Shown: in pieces, positions 1,249-22,349 of the stretch
Layout of the letters: every line of letters starts with the position of its first letter
Numbering within the stretch: the first letter of the stretch is position 1
Notes under the pieces: model-generated
Seen by the model: only the letters and a program-made list of their open reading frames with translations
What the model was told of the DNA's origin: nothing
Database searches by the model: none
Program-made: the position numbers and the translations under genes
IMG/VR virus record: IMGVR_UViG_2718217869_000002
Location: 1-43,574 of that record
Length of the DNA stretch: 43,574 nucleotides
From: a virus
Lineage: Duplodnaviria > Heunggongvirae > Uroviricota > Caudoviricetes
Direction: 5' to 3' (one strand)

Positions 1249-1689
1249 ACGTAAACTTTTTCCGGTTGTTGTCGATATCTCCATATCCCTCAACCGGAAA
1301 ATAATAATACAAAAATGCTTAGCCCAACTAATAATCACCTAATCCAAACGCCTCATTCATGTTCTGGTACAGTCGCTCAAATGTACTCCGGATACGCGGT
1401 TCGCTGATTTCCAGGACATTGTCGTCATTCAGCGACCTGTCCCGAGTATCACGGGCCTGCGAATTCATCAAGGAATGCATTGCAGAGTGAAGTATCGAGT
1501 CACGCCATATTTCGCTATCAGGATTCTGTATGATGGTTACATCGCCCGGCCCAGGGCTGTTTAGTCATCAGCGCTTTCTGACAGTGCTGAGATTTCAACC
1601 TGTTGCAGTAAAAATGAGTAGATATAGGGCAAGTGTGCTGCCAAACCCATCTTTTACGGGGTGAAGGTAGATATTGTTAGAAGGGTATC

Positions 1690-1704
1690 TGGTGTCCCCT
1701 GCAG
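1690..1704 (-). other. Putative prophage attachment-site core (attR): 15-nt copy of the 3' end of tRNA-Arg argW
   Basis: Minus-strand reads CTGCAGGGGACACCA, matching the remembered 3' end of argW; lies between the chromosomal flank and the excisionase gene; integrase is at the opposite end. Confidence 0.5.
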
Positions 1705-1777
1705 ACATCTACTTGAAGCGGCAGGGGGTTGATTGGAATGGTGTTTTTTAGATGTGATAAATATTTTACCCGCTATT

Positions 1778-1978
1778 TTACCCATTGGCGCGGCTTAAGA
1801 GCTTATTTTTGAATTCACAATGGTCACGATATAACCATCTTGCTCGACCGTGGATAACTTTGGCTTTTGGCAGGTCGCCGGACTTAATCCGGTCATAGAT
1901 GAAGGTTTTACCAAAGCCAGTATCGGCCATGATGAATTTCAAATCAACCAGTGAATCAGGCTGTAGTTCGTGTTGCAT
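1778..1978 (-). CDS. torI: AlpA/TorI-family excisionase and transcriptional regulator
   Basis: 66-aa protein MQHELQPDSLVDLKFIMADTGFGKTF..., recognised as TorI (KplE1/CPS-53 excisionase) type; located next to the att core. Confidence 0.8.
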   Translation of the reverse strand: MQHELQPDSLVDLKFIMADTGFGKTFIYDRIKSGDLPKAKVIHGRARWLYRDHCEFKNKLLSRANG

Positions 1979-2102
1979 GAGTGCTATCTCCGAATAGGGA
2001 ATCGAACCTGCAAATCAGGCAATAAAAAACCGCATTGATGCGGCGATGTTATGTCTGGATATATTGAGAAATGAACAGGCCTCATCGAGTGTGAGGCTGT
2101 GG

Positions 2103-2474
2103 TTAGTCATTGCGTAACTCGCTAATTCTTTTGTAAGTCTCTGGTGCTTTGTTTCCGTGTATCTTCATTTCTGACTTCAACAGAGCAACGAGGGAATCCC
2201 ATTCGTTGAGGATGCCTTTGAATGCCGGAACGCGCTTTGCAACCTTGTCGAATGAATCTCTGATTTCTGGAATCTGCTCGACAAGCGCAACGCATCGTCG
2301 GAAATCGGCTGCGTCATGTGGAGCGCCGAAGTGATGACCATAGATATTCTTTTTCAGTCCACATGCGATTGAGGCAAGAGTTGCGCTACTGATGCCGACA
2401 TCGCCAGTCGATTGCCATTTCAAAACCTTCATAGCCAAATCTGACATTTCTTGTCTCCAATAAAAAACCGCCAT
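2103..2474 (-). CDS. Hypothetical phage protein
   Basis: ORF with start overlapping the stop of the upstream ORF (TGATG); alternative start ATG at 2447 with a GGAG RBS; no recognisable family. Confidence 0.5.
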   Translation of the reverse strand: MAVFYWRQEMSDLAMKVLKWQSTGDVGISSATLASIACGLKKNIYGHHFGAPHDAADFRRCVALVEQIPEIRDSFDKVAKRVPAFKGILNEWDSLVALLKSEMKIHGNKAPETYKRISELRND

Positions 2475-2481
2475 CAGGCGG
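2460..2481 (-). terminator. Putative intrinsic terminator or attenuator in the leftward early operon
   Basis: Minus-strand hairpin CCGCC-TGAT-GGCGG followed by TTTTTT; overlaps the stop codon of the 55-aa ORF. Confidence 0.35.
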
Positions 2482-2641
2482 CATGGTGTTCTTTCAGTTC
2501 TTCAATTCGAATATTGGTTACGTCTGCATGCGCTATCTGCGCCCATATCATCCAGTGGTCATAGCAGTCGTTGATGTTCTCTGCTTCGATAACTCTGTTG
2601 AATGGCTCTCCATTCCATTCACCTGTCACCCGGAAGTGCAT
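2474..2641 (-). CDS. Small hypothetical phage protein (55 aa)
   Basis: ORF MHFRVTGEWNGEPFNRVIEAENINDCYDHWMIWAQ...; below the ORF-track cutoff; in operon context. Confidence 0.4.
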   Translation of the reverse strand: MHFRVTGEWNGEPFNRVIEAENINDCYDHWMIWAQIAHADVTNIRIEELKEHHAA

Positions 2642-2713
2642 TTATCATCTCCATAAAACAAAACTCGCCGTAGCGAGTTCAGATAAAAGAAATCCCCGCG
2701 AATGCGAGGATTG

Positions 2714-2998
2714 TTATTCAGTGCCGATATTCACCTTTATCGCGAACACCTTTACCGGTTTATCGCCGAAGTGGGGATGTGTGATTGTCTTGATTTCATA
2801 TCCGTCATACGGAATATCAATTCTGCGGCTGGAATCGTCGCGCTTCGGATATCCCTTTGTGATAATCAGACGGTCATACTTTCGGAACATAATTCGCTTA
2901 TTCCAATAGTCATTACACAGGCGATACTCTTCCGTTTTCTCTCCGCGAATCATGGCATCGAAGTATTCACCTTTAACGGCAAGTTGCAGGTTAGCCAC
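2714..2998 (-). CDS. Hypothetical phage protein, possibly ASCH/PUA-like fold
   Basis: 94 aa; GTG start preceded by strong AGGAGG RBS; residue pattern resembles small ASCH-domain proteins (weak, from memory). Confidence 0.5.
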   Translation of the reverse strand: MANLQLAVKGEYFDAMIRGEKTEEYRLCNDYWNKRIMFRKYDRLIITKGYPKRDDSSRRIDIPYDGYEIKTITHPHFGDKPVKVFAIKVNIGTE

Positions 2999-3611
2999 GG
3001 TTAACCTCCTGCGGCGGCTCCGGTAGCGGCATCCAGTGAGTTATTTCATCGGCAAAGATATCTGAGTTAAGTTCCGTCCAACTATTCCAATACCCAGATT
3101 CATCCCACCATTTAACCTCGACATGCTCGCCGTCGGTCACTAACACATCAGCATACCCTTTCGGCATTCGCTCACTACAGCTTATCCAACTATCCGGAGT
3201 TACCGGAGAGTTGCCAGATAGCTCGTTCAACTTGTAAGTTTGGCTTACAGGTTCGGCACCATGAAGCATGGCGGCGCGGCAGGCATTCCAGCCTCTCACC
3301 TCTGCAATAGCGGCAACAGCATCGACCGCGTACATGCTAAGAGGGTTAGGCATTGTTTTTTCTTCAGGTACTACTGGCACTGGAGGGGCGGCATAAACAG
3401 GAATAACGTCCGCTTGCTCTTTATTGCTTTCATCCGTTAAAGCCCAGAATAATTTCCCGGCCGGATGTTTGAAAATATAAGCAACTGGATCTGCTTCCAG
3501 CGATGCCAGAGCAATTTCATAAGCACGGCGCTCAATATTGTCTCGAACGTCCAAGCTGCCTATGCGCTCTTTGATTTCTTTAATCAGTTCTTTGTCGGTA
3601 AAAGTGGTCAT
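2991..3611 (-). CDS. DUF551-like phage protein
   Basis: C-terminal motif ...WISCSERMP...WW...YW...ITHWMPLPEPP typical of DUF551 proteins of lambdoid early-left regions; start ATG at 3611 just after upstream stop. Confidence 0.6.
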   Translation of the reverse strand: MTTFTDKELIKEIKERIGSLDVRDNIERRAYEIALASLEADPVAYIFKHPAGKLFWALTDESNKEQADVIPVYAAPPVPVVPEEKTMPNPLSMYAVDAVAAIAEVRGWNACRAAMLHGAEPVSQTYKLNELSGNSPVTPDSWISCSERMPKGYADVLVTDGEHVEVKWWDESGYWNSWTELNSDIFADEITHWMPLPEPPQEVNRG

Positions 3612-3612
3612 A

Positions 3613-4320
3613 TCACTCTCCTTTGATGCGAATGCCAGCAAGCCAGTTTCTTATGCCGATATATTCAGCGTTCCTGAAACCGCTTTTTACATATATAAAT
3701 GGCAAGCGAAGATTGTGACCATTGACTGCCAGGTAGTCTTTACAACCCTGTTCGGTGAAACAGCAGGTAACGAATTCATCAATATCTTTCACAGCAACGC
3801 GCCGCCATTTTTCTGGTGGCTCTCGAAAGTTTTCGTGAAGTAGTTCGAGACGACGACTTTGGCGTTTATTGGCTTCATTGCCATCTTCATCAACCCAGAC
3901 AATCCGGTCATAGTCATAATCAGCATCAACAACGATTTCGCGCTTTTGATACACACAAAACATAGGGTCTGACGTTATTCGATTATCCTGTGTTCGAATA
4001 TTTTCACCGATGATGCCAAACGAATCTGGTGCAGAGTTTGTCTGCAACTCTTCGATACGTTCAGCCATAGCAGCACACTCTTCAAAGTTGCTTAATTCTT
4101 TTCGCTCCCATTCGGCGCATTGTTTTTCCAGTTCTGCTATGCGCTTACTCCCATCCGAGATAACGCCCTCGTAATACTCACGCTGCTCGTTGAGTTTTGA
4201 TTCAAGTTCACCGAACTTACGGACAAGATATTCAGCGTTTGTTTCGTTAACCTTTAAATCTCGTGGGAAGCATTTACCTTTCAGGAATCCATCCATCTCA
4301 ATTAGTGACATTTGTTTCAT
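3613..4320 (-). CDS. Hypothetical phage protein with N-terminal coiled coil (ea-region type)
   Basis: 235-aa ORF; heptad-like charged N-terminal half, Cys/aromatic-rich C-terminal half; start overlaps upstream stop (ATGA). Confidence 0.55.
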
Positions 4321-4481
4321 TTCTTCCCACTCCGCAACATCGCATTCAGATATTTGTTTTGATTTACTGATGGAAAAGAATTTCTCTTAAGCAATTCCTC
4401 TCTCGATGGCATTGGCTTTACGCGTTGGCGAATAATCATTTCTGCCGGAAGAATGCCGGGATTGTATGCAAGTCCTCTCAT
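4317..4481 (-). CDS. Small hypothetical phage protein (54 aa)
   Basis: ORF bracketed by ATGA overlaps with both neighbours (translational coupling). Confidence 0.4.
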
Positions 4482-4786
4482 GATTTACTCTCCATGAACT
4501 GGTCAACAGCCATGCTAAGTGATACACCTAACGTCTCGATATGCTGCTGAATATCCTGTAGCGTCTGCGCCTGAGATAACAGGATTTCACGGTTGCATAA
4601 CTCTTTAACCAGATGCTCAAACTTGCTGTAATAACCGATACGACTGAGCGTTTCTTTCCCTGCATTCTCGCCTTCTTTGATAATTCCTCTTTCGCTAAGA
4701 ATCAGGTCGTGTTTGGTTCCGGTAATAACGTATTTTCCGAGGTCGATGTTTAGCTTCATTGTTTTCATTGTTAATTCCTCAGTCAT
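4478..4786 (-). CDS. Hypothetical phage protein
   Basis: 102 aa from ATG at 4786 ([12 protein letters not shown]...), overlapping stop of upstream ORF; longer ORF in track is probably shadow extension. Confidence 0.5.
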
Positions 4787-5072
4787 TACTGATAGCGCCA
4801 TAGCGTGAGCGGTAATTACGCAGGCGCGGGTCAATTTCAGGGAAGTGGGTATATGTGGCTTTGTGGAATGGTCGGATTGATGTCTGGTAAATTCGCTCGC
4901 GTTCTTCTTTCTCTGCAAGCCATATACAATGGCGAAATTCCTTTTCCTCTTTCGTTTCCTGCGGTAGCGACATTATCCGATCGTAGTTTTTTCTGAATTT
5001 ATCCAGCACCTCCGATACGGAATTGCCGGAACAGCGGCGCGGGTCATCCGCACCATACAGAGGCGCTGGCAT
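4779..5072 (-). CDS. Hypothetical phage protein
   Basis: 97-aa ORF in co-directional early-left operon. Confidence 0.5.
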   Translation of the reverse strand: MPAPLYGADDPRRCSGNSVSEVLDKFRKNYDRIMSLPQETKEEKEFRHCIWLAEKEERERIYQTSIRPFHKATYTHFPEIDPRLRNYRSRYGAISND

Positions 5073-5088
5073 GGTTTTCTCCTGTTGA

Positions 5089-5637
5089 TTATTTAGCTAA
5101 CTTTTTCCAGATCGCTGAAACGTATTTGGCTTGGTGAATGGCATCATCAAGCGCGTTGTGGCGAGTTCCTTTGAATGGCATATCTCGCTTAGGGTCGAAT
5201 CCTATTACCTTTCCAAGCTCGACGATTGTTCTTACGTCGCGGTCATTCCACCACTGCCACGGAACTGGCCGCCCTGTCAGCGAATAACTGTTGCGGAGAA
5301 TAACGCAGTCAAATGATGCTCCATTCCCCCAAACCTGAACGAATTTGTGGTTAGCGTTCTTTATGATGAATTCAGATAACCATGAAAGAGCCGTTGAAAG
5401 CTCTTGAGTGTTGCTGGTTAGCGATTTTCTGGCTTCTTCACTCTGTTCCATCCACCATAAAATCGTTGAAGCGTCAGGACGCGCCCGATATCGCATTGAT
5501 GACTCAAGCGAGATATTTACCGAGAACTCTTCTCCTGTTTCTCCGGTATTCGGGTCAAAGAATACCGCCCCAATAGAAATAACTGGCGCGTATGGCCCGT
5601 TGCCCATTGTTTCAAGGTCAACCATTAAGTGATTCAT
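5089..5637 (-). CDS. Phage 3'-5' exonuclease (DnaQ-like/DEDD fold)
   Basis: 182 aa; N-terminal MVDLETMG motif and downstream acidic/His motifs typical of DEDDh exonucleases; adjacent to ssb and annealase genes. Confidence 0.65.
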   Translation of the reverse strand: MNHLMVDLETMGNGPYAPVISIGAVFFDPNTGETGEEFSVNISLESSMRYRARPDASTILWWMEQSEEARKSLTSNTQELSTALSWLSEFIIKNANHKFVQVWGNGASFDCVILRNSYSLTGRPVPWQWWNDRDVRTIVELGKVIGFDPKRDMPFKGTRHNALDDAIHQAKYVSAIWKKLAK

Positions 5638-7721: not shown

Positions 7722-8027
7722 TCAAATAAGTGGTTTGCTGCCTAATTTCATTTTCTGGCGACCAACACATGTCACACCCATTTCACTGCGCGGCTTGCTG
7801 TACCATGTGCGCTGATTCTTGCGCTCAATACGTTGCAGGTTGCTTTCAATCTGTTCGTGGTATTCAGCCAGCACTGTAAGGTCTATCGGATTCAGTGCGC
7901 TTTCTACTCGTGATTTCGGTTTGCGATTCAGCGAGAGAATAGGGCGGTTAACTGGTTTTGCGCTTACCCCAACCAACAGGGGATTTGCTGCTTTCCATTG
8001 AGCCTGTTTCTCTGCGCGACGTTCGCG
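7722..8027 (-). pseudogene. N: Antitermination protein N, 3' portion (disrupted by IS insertion)
   Basis: Translation from ...ERRAEKQAQWKAANPLLVGVSAKPVNRPILSLNRKPKSRVESALNPIDLTVLAEYH... closely matches lambda N; reading frame upstream continues into IS terminal repeat. Confidence 0.85.
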
Positions 8028-8221
8028 TTGCGTATTTTCATGAAAGGAGATCACTCAATAACTTCCATCGAGATCGGGTAATAACATTTGAACAGATCGC
8101 TGAATAACATCGATGGAGATCACTTTTGACTCATTTTGTTATTCAGTGATCTCCATCAATGTTATTGGAACTTCACAGGTGTGTTGATCTGTATCTTTTG
8201 CCATTCCGGTAAAGGATACCT

Positions 8222-9763
8222 ATGCCAACAGTTCCAATTTCTATGAGAAAACTTAAAGAAATTCTTAGGCTTAAATACGGTGTTGGACTCAGCCATCGAC
8301 AAATTGGTCGTAGTCTTGCAATCTCCCCTTCCGTTGTATCCAGATATGCTAATCGGGCGGCTCAACTTGGCATAAAGCAGTGGCCCTTACCTACAGGATG
8401 GGATGATACAAAACTAAAACATGCGTTCCTTCAGACCCAGGTTAAGATGAAGAAGCACTCTCTGCCTGACTGGGCTACAGTACACCGGGAACTGCGTAAT
8501 AAATGCGTGACGCTGCAGCTACTCTGGGAAGAATACTGTGAGCGTAATCCAGGCGGTTTTTACAGCTATAACCATTACTGCCGGATGTACCGTGAATGGC
8601 TCAAAACCACTTCACCATCAATGCGTCAGGTACATAAAGCTGGCGAAAAACTTTTCGTTGATTACTGTGGACCTACCGTTGGCGTTACCGACCCTGAGAC
8701 CGGAGAAATAAGAACTGCTCAGGTCATCGTAGCTGTTCTCGGGGCATCAAGTTACACATGGGCAGAGGCCACCTGGTCTCAGCAGCTTGAAGACTGGGTG
8801 ATGAGTCATGTTCGCTGCTTCCAGTGGTTGGGTGGCGTTCCTGAACTTGTTGTTCCGGACAATCTGAAAAGCGCCACATCCAGGGCATGTAAGTATGATC
8901 CTGACGTTAACCCTACCTACCAGCAGATGCTTGAGCATTATAATGTCGCAGTTTTGCCTGCGCGGCCACGTAAACCGAAAGATAAAGCCAAAGCTGAAGT
9001 TGGCGTTCAGGTTGTTGAACGCTGGATCATGGCCCGAATCAGGCATGAGATCTTCTACAGCCTTGCATCGCTTAATCAGCGCATTCGGGAGTTGCTGGAA
9101 AGACTGAATAACAAAATAATGCAGAAGTTGGGTTATTCACGTGCAGAACTCTTCATCCAGCTTGATAAACCCGCACTGAAGCCTCTTCCTGAAGCCAGTT
9201 ACAGTTACACCCTGGTGAAGAAAGTCAGAGTTCATGCCGATTACCACGTGGAAATCGACAAACATTACTACTCGGTTCCATGTTCGCTGTTAGGCCAGCA
9301 ACTGGAAGCATGGATCTCCGGAGAACTGGTAAGACTCTTCAATCAGGGGCAGGAGGTTGCTGTGCACCCGCGCAAGCGTACTTATGGCTACAGTACCCGC
9401 AACGAGCACATGCCTGAAGCTCATCGACAGCATGCCACCTGGACGCCAGAGCGTCTTCTGGAATGGGCGGGGCACATAGGCAGTGAAACTCATAGTTATG
9501 TGCTTCATATACTGAACTCTCGTCCACATCCGGAACAAAGCTATCGCTTCTGCCTTGGACTCCTGAACCTTCATAAAAAATACAGTAAAGCCAGACTTAA
9601 TGCAGCATGTGCAAGAGCTCTGAAAACAAAGGTATGGCGTCTGTCAGGTATTAAATCGATCCTGGAAAAAGGTCTGGATAAACAACCTGTTCAGGATCCA
9701 AAACCAGATCTGTTATCCACGATGGAACACGAAAACGTACGCGGCAGTGAGTATTACCACTGA
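8222..9763 (+). CDS. istA: IS21-family transposase IstA
   Basis: 513 aa with N-terminal HTH and DDE integrase-core-like region; size and tandem arrangement with istB. Confidence 0.8.
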   Translation: MPTVPISMRKLKEILRLKYGVGLSHRQIGRSLAISPSVVSRYANRAAQLGIKQWPLPTGWDDTKLKHAFLQTQVKMKKHSLPDWATVHRELRNKCVTLQLLWEEYCERNPGGFYSYNHYCRMYREWLKTTSPSMRQVHKAGEKLFVDYCGPTVGVTDPETGEIRTAQVIVAVLGASSYTWAEATWSQQLEDWVMSHVRCFQWLGGVPELVVPDNLKSATSRACKYDPDVNPTYQQMLEHYNVAVLPARPRKPKDKAKAEVGVQVVERWIMARIRHEIFYSLASLNQRIRELLERLNNKIMQKLGYSRAELFIQLDKPALKPLPEASYSYTLVKKVRVHADYHVEIDKHYYSVPCSLLGQQLEAWISGELVRLFNQGQEVAVHPRKRTYGYSTRNEHMPEAHRQHATWTPERLLEWAGHIGSETHSYVLHILNSRPHPEQSYRFCLGLLNLHKKYSKARLNAACARALKTKVWRLSGIKSILEKGLDKQPVQDPKPDLLSTMEHENVRGSEYYH

Positions 9764-9774
9764 TACGGGATCCA

Positions 9775-10524
9775 ATGATGAATCATCTTTACGAACAACT
9801 GACCGCACTTAAACTCACCGGCTTCCGTGATGCGCTTAAAAAGCAACTTGCTCAACCGGGCACATACCAGGAGCTGGGCTTCGAAGAACGCCTGTCATTA
9901 CTGACAGCAGAAGAACTAACCTGCCGTGAAAACAGGAAGGCAGAGCGTCTGATCAAACATGCACGGTTCAGACTTAATGCTGAGTTATCAAAGCTGGATT
10001 ATCGTAACAATAGAGGGCTGGACAGGGCCCTCATCCGTTCACTCAGTCAGGGAAACTGGTTAACCCTGAAACAAAATATTTTACTGACCGGGGCCACCGG
10101 CAGCGGTAAAACGTTCCTGGCATGTGCACTTGGTCATAATGCCTGCCGACAGGGATACAAGGTCTACTATTATCGCCTTAAAGCGCTGATGGAACAGTGC
10201 TATCAGGGGCATGCTGATGGAAGATACAGCAAACTTTTGACCAGGCTGAATAATAGCGATCTGCTGCTTCTGGATGACTGGGGGCTGGAACCTCTCTCAT
10301 CAGAACAGCGTAGCGACCTGCTGGAAATAGTGGATCTGATGTACCAACGAGGCTCAATCATCGTAGTGAGCCAGTTGCCGGTGGAAAACTGGTACAAAAT
10401 GATCGGAGACTCCACACATGCGGATGCCATCCTAGATCGACTGGTTCATGGCAGTATCAAGATCGAACTTAAAGGAGAATCAATGCGGAAAATACAATCT
10501 CCGTTGACCGAAGGAGATCAGTGA
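9775..10524 (+). CDS. istB: IS21-family helper ATPase IstB
   Basis: 249 aa with Walker A LTGATGSGKTFLA and Walker B LLLLDD motifs. Confidence 0.85.
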   Translation: MMNHLYEQLTALKLTGFRDALKKQLAQPGTYQELGFEERLSLLTAEELTCRENRKAERLIKHARFRLNAELSKLDYRNNRGLDRALIRSLSQGNWLTLKQNILLTGATGSGKTFLACALGHNACRQGYKVYYYRLKALMEQCYQGHADGRYSKLLTRLNNSDLLLLDDWGLEPLSSEQRSDLLEIVDLMYQRGSIIVVSQLPVENWYKMIGDSTHADAILDRLVHGSIKIELKGESMRKIQSPLTEGDQ

Positions 10525-11178: not shown

Positions 11179-12531
<1,353 letters not shown>

Positions 12532-21648: not shown

Positions 21649-22170
21649 ATGAACTACCCAACCGTTGTTAACGATATAGATTTCAGAGACCTAATTTTTG
21701 TAGCAAACAACGATCCGGTTACAGATTCTTTTATGGTGGCAAAAGCATTTGGAAAGCTGCCGAAGAACGTAGTCCGTGACATTGAGCGAACCATAGAAGC
21801 TTGCCCTCCTGAGTTTGATACAAAGCTCAACTTTGAGCTTTGCTATAAAAACAATGAGTTACAGAATGGTAAGCCGCAAAAATTCTACCGTCTCCGCAAG
21901 GATGGGTTGATGCTTTTGGTTATGTCCTACACCAAAAAAGAAGCAATGCGTATCAAAATTGCTTACATCAACGCATTTAACTGGATGTACGCCATGCTTC
22001 AGGTTGGTCATCTTCAATTTGAAGAAGAGAGAAATGCCGTAATGCTGGAGTACATGAAAGAGAAGGATGTTGCCAGCATGTCAGGTCGCCTGCTAAATCG
22101 CTGGGGAAAATTAAGAAGCCTCAGCTACTGGCGAGAATTGAACGCCTTGAACAGCACGGGCAAACCGTAA
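21649..22170 (+). CDS. Rha-family phage regulatory protein
   Basis: 173 aa; N-terminal region (NNDPVTDSFMVAKAFGK...VVRDIERTIE) typical of Rha-type proteins; from memory. Confidence 0.55.
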   Translation: MNYPTVVNDIDFRDLIFVANNDPVTDSFMVAKAFGKLPKNVVRDIERTIEACPPEFDTKLNFELCYKNNELQNGKPQKFYRLRKDGLMLLVMSYTKKEAMRIKIAYINAFNWMYAMLQVGHLQFEEERNAVMLEYMKEKDVASMSGRLLNRWGKLRSLSYWRELNALNSTGKP

Positions 22171-22349
22171 TCCCCGGACTCACTAATTAACGGCAGTACA
22201 GCGAAACAACCCAAGCCAGTAAGTGGGGAAATAACACTGGCAGCCACTGAAAGATGAACCTCCTGCCTTATGGCAAAAAAAGATTCTTTGTGGTGGCGGA
22301 CTGATGGAAAGACATCCTAATCAAGCAACCACTCCACAGGGTCATAATT

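Follow-up and report, generated by a model that had tools for sequence, protein, structure and literature searches.

The window analysed here is the whole of IMG/VR virus record IMGVR_UViG_2718217869_000002 (43,574 nucleotides; Caudoviricetes), and this report concerns three adjacent genes on its minus strand, between positions 2714 and 4320, which encode proteins of 94, 206 and 235 amino acids (aa). The open reading frames were found to be co-directional with tight or overlapping junctions, as an earlier model-made reading of the letters (the sequence-only reading) had described. All three genes are already known, as they belong to named families and have identical or near-identical copies in phage HK022 and in Shiga toxin (Stx) phages, while the biochemical roles of their products are putative. 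Taken as a whole they are probably three independent, non-essential accessory cassettes carried by the pL operon of a lambdoid prophage (P22-like, HK022-like), in its 'ea / exo-xis' segment. The features of the block are as follows:

3613-4320, minus strand: 235-aa gene of the Ea22 family (HK022 gp35 type; V3 C-terminal domain, YfdS-type N-terminus), open reading frame
4246-4320, minus strand: N-terminal segment of the 235-aa protein (codons 1-25), predicted disordered, shared with YfdS of prophage CPS-53
4039-4245, minus strand: coiled-coil stalk (codons 26-94), a single 69-residue helix with a heptad pattern (AlphaFold)
3637-4038, minus strand: globular alpha/beta C-terminal domain of Ea22 V3 type (codons 95-228), from AlphaFold and conservation
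3613-3636, minus strand: predicted flexible tail (codons 229-235, the AGIRIKGE tail) and stop, carrying the next gene's Shine-Dalgarno sequence
3618-3623, minus strand: Shine-Dalgarno AAGGAG of the 206-aa gene, inside the codons AAA-GGA-GAG (K-G-E) that end the 235-aa gene
2991-3611, minus strand: 206-aa mosaic DUF551 gene, open reading frame, ATG start as in RefSeq
3005-3010, minus strand: Shine-Dalgarno AGGAGG of the ASCH-like gene, inside the PQEV codons (CAG-GAG-GTT = Q-E-V) of the DUF551 gene
2714-2998, minus strand: 94-aa ASCH/PUA-like gene (PHROG 625), open reading frame, GTG start
2661-2712, minus strand: two tandem terminator-like hairpins (2712-2691 and 2680-2661), each with a T-run, directly 3' of the ASCH-like gene

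All three genes are real, on the strength of their Pfam and PHROG matches (PHROG E = 1e-51 to 1e-57), of the hundreds to thousands of homologues found for each protein, and of a third-codon-position bias in the ASCH-like gene, in which 14 of the 21 substitutions relative to HK022 fall at third positions (15 synonymous, 6 non-synonymous). Their reading frames are conserved in relatives and they are not core phage genes with established roles, which leaves standing their earlier description as accessory genes. A single base separates the stop codon of the 235-aa gene from the ATG of the 206-aa gene (TGA-T-ATG), and the 206-aa and 94-aa genes overlap by 8 nucleotides (GTGGCTAA); an alternative TTG start at 3641 would give a DUF551 protein of 216 aa. 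Translation is predicted to be coupled across the block, because the ribosome-binding sites of the 206-aa and 94-aa genes are each embedded in the last codons of the preceding gene. The tandem hairpins mark the end of this coupled block.

No sigma-70-like promoter site was found in the interval 1600-5200, where 6.2 +/- 2.8 were expected from shuffles; this fits genes relying on a distant promoter. Terminator-like hairpins in the same interval numbered 8 compared to 3.8 expected. Further hairpins were located 3' of the block (2482-2467, 2097-2079 and 2044-2029), and such hairpins occur only after the block. Rfam and transfer RNA scans of the region gave no matches. These signals bear on one alternative, namely that the three genes are 'moron' genes expressed by the lysogen, which would shield the host through superinfection exclusion or defence against phages. 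Genes of that kind are common in prophage accessory regions, and deletion of yfdS in Escherichia coli K-12 has been reported to cause sensitivity to hydrogen peroxide (report cited in PMC4776307). However, the genes and their surroundings are free of promoter-like sites, the pL operon that contains them is repressed, and PADLOC, run on the three proteins and three neighbouring ones, returned no family at E <= 0.1, which makes this alternative extremely improbable.

The 235-aa protein, which the sequence-only reading had left unassigned beyond a coiled coil, is by sequence comparison a member of the Ea22 family and not an orphan. Its residues 40-235 are 97% identical over 196 residues to residues 120-315 of Ea22 (V3) of Stx phage vB_EcoS_P27 (P27), and its C-terminal 141 residues are 98-100% identical in HK022, P27, PA2, PA28, VT2phi_272, 1717, 2851 and WGPS4/6/8. 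Most of these near-identical phages (P27, PA28, phi272, 1717, 2851 and WGPS4/6/8) are among the carriers of 'Ea22 V3' described in PMC10834534, which also relates biochemical results on P27 Ea22. The gene has 3 mismatches in 708 nucleotides to HK022 gp35, the proteins being ~99% identical, and the protein shares with lambda Ea22 24 of 25 coiled-coil residues (96%) and the last eight residues, AGIRIKGE (8/8). The Pfam family Ead_Ea22 (PF13935 / IPR025153) matched residues 33-65 at E = 1.9e-5, covering model positions 113-139 only, and a precomputed PF13935 match is present in close relatives with longer N-termini. Residues 3-42 are 75% identical to residues 2-41 of K-12 YfdS. RefSeq/PGAP covers only 4126-4320 (the first 65 codons) of this intact gene and leaves 3613-4125 (~510 bp) unannotated; for strains Ecol_545 and Ec-U18 the label given is that of a pseudogene ('DUF551' or 'YfdS family, missing C-terminus'), and the same open reading frame is an 'ead/Ea22-like family protein' in the MRSN346647 and HK022 records.

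Ea22 proteins are built of three parts, with a coiled coil placed between a short N-terminus and a variable C-terminal domain, and those of lambda and P27 are tetrameric (PMC10834534). The same three parts were seen in an AlphaFold model of the 235-aa protein built on 60 diverse relatives (mean predicted local distance difference test score (pLDDT) 88.5), with residues 1-25 disordered (pLDDT <50 at residues 1-5 and 12-18), a helix at 26-94 and a globular region at 99-228. The N-terminal coiled coil proposed in the sequence-only reading was borne out by this helix and by a heptad test, as 70% of its a/d positions are hydrophobic in one register, a value reached by 15 of 5,000 shuffles. In addition, the gene lies where an Ea22 gene is expected, in the exo-xis / ea segment, on the N-side strand with abc2/DUF2737 at one end and xis at the other, and the protein ends in KGE, as the basic-Gly-Glu end of the family requires. 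By this plan, the disordered N-terminus and the 69-residue coiled coil would assemble an oligomer, a tetramer if P27 Ea22 is a guide, and the stalk would display copies of the 130-residue alpha/beta domain. Lambda and Phi24B mutants deleted for ea22 show reduced lysogeny and survival (PMC7093339), and by analogy the 235-aa protein may tilt the infected cell toward survival and lysogeny.

The V3 domain was modelled with confidence (residues 99-228, ~130 residues; pLDDT mostly 93-98, with one 10-residue block at 84), the order of helices (H) and strands (E) being H-E-E-H-E-H-E-H. Matches to it were found in 1,476 representatives of 50%-identity clusters at E <= 1e-3 (818 at <= 1e-10), in which the domain is placed C-terminally, internally, N-terminally or alone. 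Near-invariant residues are Q111, N113, R114, T116, P119, F121, V123, K126, W142, L158, R174, F183-V-T185, C187-F-T-E190, G192, H202-N203, P207, R216-N217, E219 and R224. A pattern scan of one genome per species gave matches in Scandinavium, Serratia, Buttiauxella, Pectobacterium, Marinobacter, Micromonospora (L027), Francisella, Endozoicomonas, Azospirillum, Dependentiae, Burkholderiaceae, Planctomycetes and a contig binned as Methanosarcinales, so that conservation reaches Actinobacteria, Planctomycetes and Alphaproteobacteria. In two distant loci, the Methanosarcinales-binned contig (L036, 1955-2707) and a Planctomycetes contig (L037, 3953-4651), the neighbours are of phage type (an integrase and a Dit tail protein, or an HTH_36 replication-like protein and a phosphoadenosine phosphosulfate (PAPS) reductase), and the Methanosarcinales bin may be a mis-binned phage contig. 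A 640-aa distant homologue has ERF/YqaJ upstream and Exc/Int downstream.

The C-terminal domain had been described as rich in cysteine and aromatic residues; this was overstated, as it has 4 Cys in 141 residues and is 11% aromatic. A zinc-binding Cys-rich domain was ruled out, because conservation is limited to two of the cysteines (C187 and C193) and a CxxC pattern is absent. Scans of 150 V3 relatives revealed no Pfam family for the domain itself, and the partner domains identified were Ead_Ea22 (6), DUF551 (3), Lar (2), dATP/dGTP pyrophosphohydrolase (1) and DUF3850 (1). The three DUF551 fusions are proteins P0387, P0422 and P0455; Lar is a restriction alleviation protein and DUF3850 a PUA-like relative of ASCH, with P0392 and P0376 among the fusion proteins. 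A PDB sequence search with the 235-aa protein and V3 matched no chain, lambda Ea22 included, and Foldseek of the 235-aa model against the PDB gave nothing below E = 0.1. The polar residues Q111, N113, R114, T116, E190, H202, N203, R216, N217, E219 and R224 would most likely form a binding or catalytic site. Given the broad host range and the polar character of these invariant residues, the predicted ligand would be a universal one that very different hosts have in common, for example a nucleic acid or nucleotide. A more specific proposal, that the V3 domain acts early in infection on a universal nucleic-acid or nucleotide target, possibly together with partners of the DUF551 and ASCH types, with which it sometimes forms fusion proteins, is quite doubtful.

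All Ea22 proteins are reported to end in a basic residue followed by Gly-Glu, the significance of which was called unknown (PMC7093339). In the 235-aa gene the tail codons are AAAGGAGAG; the TGA stop comes next, a single base separates it from the ATG of the 206-aa gene, and the AAGGAG within the tail codons is thus at the correct distance. The P27 record has a ribosome-binding site annotated at the same spot (P27 2913-2925, L019), and there too the next gene starts one base past the stop. The tail is unstructured in the AlphaFold model (pLDDT 59 in the last block), and family conservation ends at L227. It appears, then, that the '+GE' end of Ea22 proteins is explained as the Shine-Dalgarno sequence of the next gene. 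In lambda (2348-2375, L004) the same 24-nucleotide tail is kept and no gene directly follows, for which reason the lambda tail looks like a relic or recombination joint. The alignment of DUF551 proteins has a conserved PLPEPPQEV end, and here CAG-GAG-GTT is the ribosome-binding site of the ASCH-like gene (2991-3020), so the 'PQEV' end would have the same Shine-Dalgarno explanation.

The DUF551 call made in the sequence-only reading was confirmed by a full-length Pfam match (PF04448, model positions 1-68 of 68, E = 4.1e-15, 56.8 bits compared to a cut-off of 22), the domain occupying residues 151-211 of the 216-aa reading, or ~141-201 of the 206-aa protein. The protein is a mosaic of a YfdT-like N-terminus (residues 1-42, 83% identical to K-12 YfdT), a conserved AxPVAYIFKHPAGKLFW...PVPVVP module, a GWNACRAAML module and the DUF551 domain, and several PHROGs each cover a different part of it. 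The cassette structure was read from an alignment of 32 relatives, which contains at least four alternative N-termini, a conserved block 'PVAYIFKHPAGKLFWALTDESNK...VIPVYAAPPVPVVP', and alternative middle blocks with optional inserts; the edges of the DUF551 domain, 'PDGWISCSERMP' and 'THWMPLPEPPQEV', are fixed, whereas its core comes in many interchangeable versions. Parts of the gene are present in 3,166 of 5,426 complete E. coli genomes and the exact combination in only 4, while the exact protein was found on 59 contigs of a large collection. No solved structure was matched in the PDB, profile search included. Functional data for the family are only indirect: in K-12, replication initiation is inhibited in multicopy by YfdQ and YfdR provided that YfdS (a DUF551 protein) or YfdT is also present (PMC4776307), and YfdQ and YfdR are absent from this prophage. 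The 206-aa protein would most likely be a host-protein binder, a modulator of host physiology of the YfdS/YfdT kind.

The 94-aa protein matched PHROG 625 at E = 4e-51 and belongs to a family with 669 homologues across Enterobacterales and 37 invariant columns; the gene is present in 1,465 of the 5,426 complete E. coli genomes. The ASCH octapeptide is defined as G-x-K-x-x-[ETS]-x-R (PMC9599836), and the protein carries G19-E-K21-T-E-E24-Y-R26, in which G19, K21, E24 and R26 are invariant in 21 members ranging from E. coli to Erwinia and Lonsdalea. The Pfam ASCH family (PF04266) scored 14.4 bits, below its cut-off of 21.2 and over the first 23 model positions only, with matches in 11 of the 21 relatives (best E = 0.021), and a profile search of the PDB with the family found no ASCH chain. 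An AlphaFold model (pLDDT 85.8) has six strands and two short helices, and its first-ranked Foldseek match was an Enterococcus faecalis 'activating signal cointegrator' protein (3iuw; probability 0.99, E = 0.012). The next matches were PH0355 (2z0t), E. coli YqfB, PF0470, ZmASCH and 1wk2, and then YTH, SRA and MspJI domains, all of which belong to the PUA-like group. The invariant octapeptide and these matches support the ASCH/PUA-like fold suggested in the sequence-only reading, with weak E-values, and the protein is accordingly modelled as a minimal ASCH/PUA-like barrel that most likely would bind RNA or a (modified) nucleoside. The catalytic set of YqfB is Lys21, Thr24, Arg26 and Glu74 (PMC9599836). 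By sequence numbering only, K21 and R26 are present in the 94-aa protein, position 24 is Glu and position 74 is His. YqfB-type N4-acylcytidine amidohydrolase was ruled out as a candidate, the Thr24 nucleophile being replaced by Glu, and because this Glu is invariant such activity is judged unlikely for the 94-aa protein, which is probably not an enzyme of the YqfB type.

Several of these results bear on the earlier suggestion that at least one of the three proteins is an early anti-defence or anti-restriction factor directed against host immunity. The highly mosaic slot has abc2 (anti-RecBCD) as its neighbour, the DUF551 domain keeps its edges and exchanges its core in the way that an arms race would produce, V3 is fused in other phages to Lar and to dATP/dGTP pyrophosphohydrolase, and PUA-like folds read modified bases, with YTH, SRA and MspJI among the fold matches. 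Against this, no similarity was seen to characterised anti-defence proteins in the PDB, Pfam, NCBIfam or PHROG annotations (the NCBIfam search of the proteins returned nothing, and PDB searches with each protein and with family profiles gave chance matches only), the published phenotypes of Ea22 homologues concern only the lysis-lysogeny choice (PMC7093339), and the fusions are rare, the domains being merely neighbours in the same variable region. An anti-defence role is therefore considered unlikely.

A second alternative is that the three genes are one functional module, in which the V3 domain, DUF551 and the ASCH-like protein jointly act on one target. The genes are adjacent and apparently translationally coupled, they have the same order in HK022, and single polypeptides join V3 to DUF551 (P0387, P0422 and P0455) or to DUF3850. 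However, in complete E. coli genomes their frequencies are very unequal, 1,465 genomes having the ASCH-like gene, 472 the V3 domain and 4 the present DUF551 combination. The gene order also differs in P27, where the gene next to Ea22 is not the same and DUF551 is found four genes beyond. Elsewhere the ASCH-like gene is placed after a lambda-P-like replication gene (in an Erwinia prophage) or after a GmrSD_N-like gene (in other Enterobacteriaceae), and the fusions number only 3 and 1 among 150 representatives. As the frequencies differ, the order in P27 differs and the neighbours of the ASCH-like gene elsewhere are unrelated, the three genes are independent cassettes sharing a variable region. 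A search for co-varying gene sets, which the sequence-only reading had advised, thus gave a negative answer for these three, their independent assortment among prophages ruling out a three-gene system, and joint action of the three on a single target is highly improbable.

In the genomic setting of the block the main neighbouring features are as follows:

1778-1978: TorI-type excisionase
4317-4481, minus strand: DUF2737 gene, upstream and co-transcribed, its stop overlapping the start of the Ea22-like gene (ATGA)
7722-8051: N gene
8222-10524: IS21-family element ISEc12 (istA 8222-9763, istB 9778-10524)
11580-12212: cI-like repressor

The window is 100% identical in DNA to E. coli strain Ecol_545 (NZ_CP018976.1, 1377010-1420583, reverse strand). 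Its first bases lie within the sucrose permease gene cscB and the remainder is a complete P22-like prophage, located between the csc sucrose genes and IntS. Its head genes are of P22 type (capsid, portal, gp4/gp10 and ejection proteins), its regulation genes include a nin region, Q, CII and a cI-like gene, its early-left genes are N followed by Rad52-like, ssb, exonuclease and abc2 genes, and its far end carries IntS and gtr-like glucosylation genes. The cryptic prophage CPS-53 of K-12 has a 100% identical TorI and, between the excisionase and the attachment site, DNA of 95% identity. The three-gene block lies in the early-left (pL) operon, flanked by the recombination genes (Rad52-like, ssb, exonuclease and abc2) and the TorI-type excisionase; that position had been predicted correctly, but the slot between abc2 and xis holds seven genes and not three, with DUF5405 and DUF2737 upstream of the block and two small genes (55 aa, PHROG 676; 114 aa, PHROG 1229) downstream.

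The region is ~98% identical in DNA to phage HK022, and the alignment breaks at two places only, at the replaced DUF551 core (window 3038-3264 compared to HK022 4438-4771) and at the DUF5405 gene (window 4482-4765), which is absent from HK022; these breaks are clean mosaic boundaries close to gene or domain edges. Portions of 2600-4500, an interval that extends slightly beyond the three genes, are present in 4,169 of the 5,426 complete E. coli genomes, and only 6 hold at least 80% of this combination, so the slot is as variable as the sequence-only reading had proposed. The genes would be transcribed early after infection or induction by N-antiterminated transcription from pL. The ISEc12 element separates N and the early-left operon, including the three genes, from the side of the cI-like repressor and pL, and the prophage is probably defective. 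Elsewhere in the window a Rha-family gene is frameshifted (21649-22190), and a 183-bp fragment of a DUF4942-family gene (1328-1510), between the prophage end and cscB, is probably the remnant of another mobile element.

A number of points weigh against the reading of three accessory cassettes with the functions proposed above. The Ead_Ea22 score of the 235-aa protein (25.7 bits) falls slightly short of the gathering score of 27, and the first 39 residues of the protein are unlike those of Stx-phage Ea22. The pro-lysogenic phenotype comes from deletions in lambda and Phi24B, whose C-terminal domains differ from V3 (PMC7093339; PMC10834534), and the functions suggested for these exact proteins are carried over from homologues. 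No fold neighbour found by Foldseek hints at a ligand for V3, the ASCH fold matches are weak (best E 0.012, template modelling score ~0.45-0.55), and the rare V3 fusions (DUF551 in 3 of 150 and DUF3850 in 1 of 150) leave room for a functional link. Finally, because ISEc12 lies between N and the repressor/pL side, the early-left operon including the three genes may be cut off from its normal promoter, in which case expression from pL may not occur in this prophage.

As a discovery the three genes carry little weight, since they are near-identical to genes of HK022 and Stx phages and fall in named families; they are ordinary, already catalogued accessory genes of lambdoid prophages. The results are of use for annotation, as the RefSeq records of at least two genomes miscall the intact 235-aa gene as a truncated pseudogene, and they offer a simple explanation, the Shine-Dalgarno sequence of the next gene, for the '+GE' end of Ea22 and the 'PQEV' end of DUF551 proteins. 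The K-12 proteins YfdS and YfdT can be read as recombinants of N-terminal modules seen here. The V3 domain is the one part that could repay work, being widespread, strongly conserved, outside Pfam and without a structural neighbour; a deep and diverse alignment gave a confident model of residues 99-228, which was not obtained in published work, and defined conserved residues for mutation.

Among known systems, the ASCH superfamily (the N4-acetylcytidine (ac4C) amidohydrolase YqfB, Zymomonas ZmASCH, 3IUW and Pyrococcus horikoshii PH0355) resembles the 94-aa protein in the place of the octapeptide, with K21 and R26 numbered as in YqfB, and in the small beta-barrel predicted for it. Superfamily members are ~103-145 aa long, compared to 94 aa for this protein, which is phage-borne, stand-alone and below the Pfam threshold. 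Compared to other DUF551 phage proteins, the 206-aa protein differs in its rare combination of N-terminal and middle modules and is otherwise not distinctive.

Prophage CPS-53 shares the IntS/TorI recombination module and, in its interval 11512-12179 (L006) compared to window 2991-4320, the order YfdS-like, YfdT-like, xis, the first ~40 residues of YfdS and YfdT being 75% and 83% identical to those of the 235-aa and 206-aa proteins, respectively. Their C-terminal parts, however, are exchanged: DUF551 is on the YfdS-type N-terminus in K-12 and on the YfdT-type N-terminus here, where the YfdS-type N-terminus bears the coiled coil and V3 domain. CPS-53 also has the YfdQ and YfdR needed for the replication-initiation phenotype, which this prophage is without.

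Lambda Ea22 has the same three-part plan and genomic slot as the 235-aa protein, whereas its globular C-terminal domain, for which a nuclear magnetic resonance structure exists (PMC10834534), is unrelated in sequence to V3. The closest counterparts are P27 Ea22 and HK022 gp35. P27 is a Stx phage, whereas the phage carrying the 235-aa gene is P22-like, and P27 Ea22 has a 119-residue Stx-type N-terminus where the 235-aa protein has a 39-residue YfdS-type segment. Both counterparts nevertheless occupy the same slot between the recombination genes and xis, and share with the 235-aa protein the plan of a coiled coil followed by a C-terminal domain and a KGE end.

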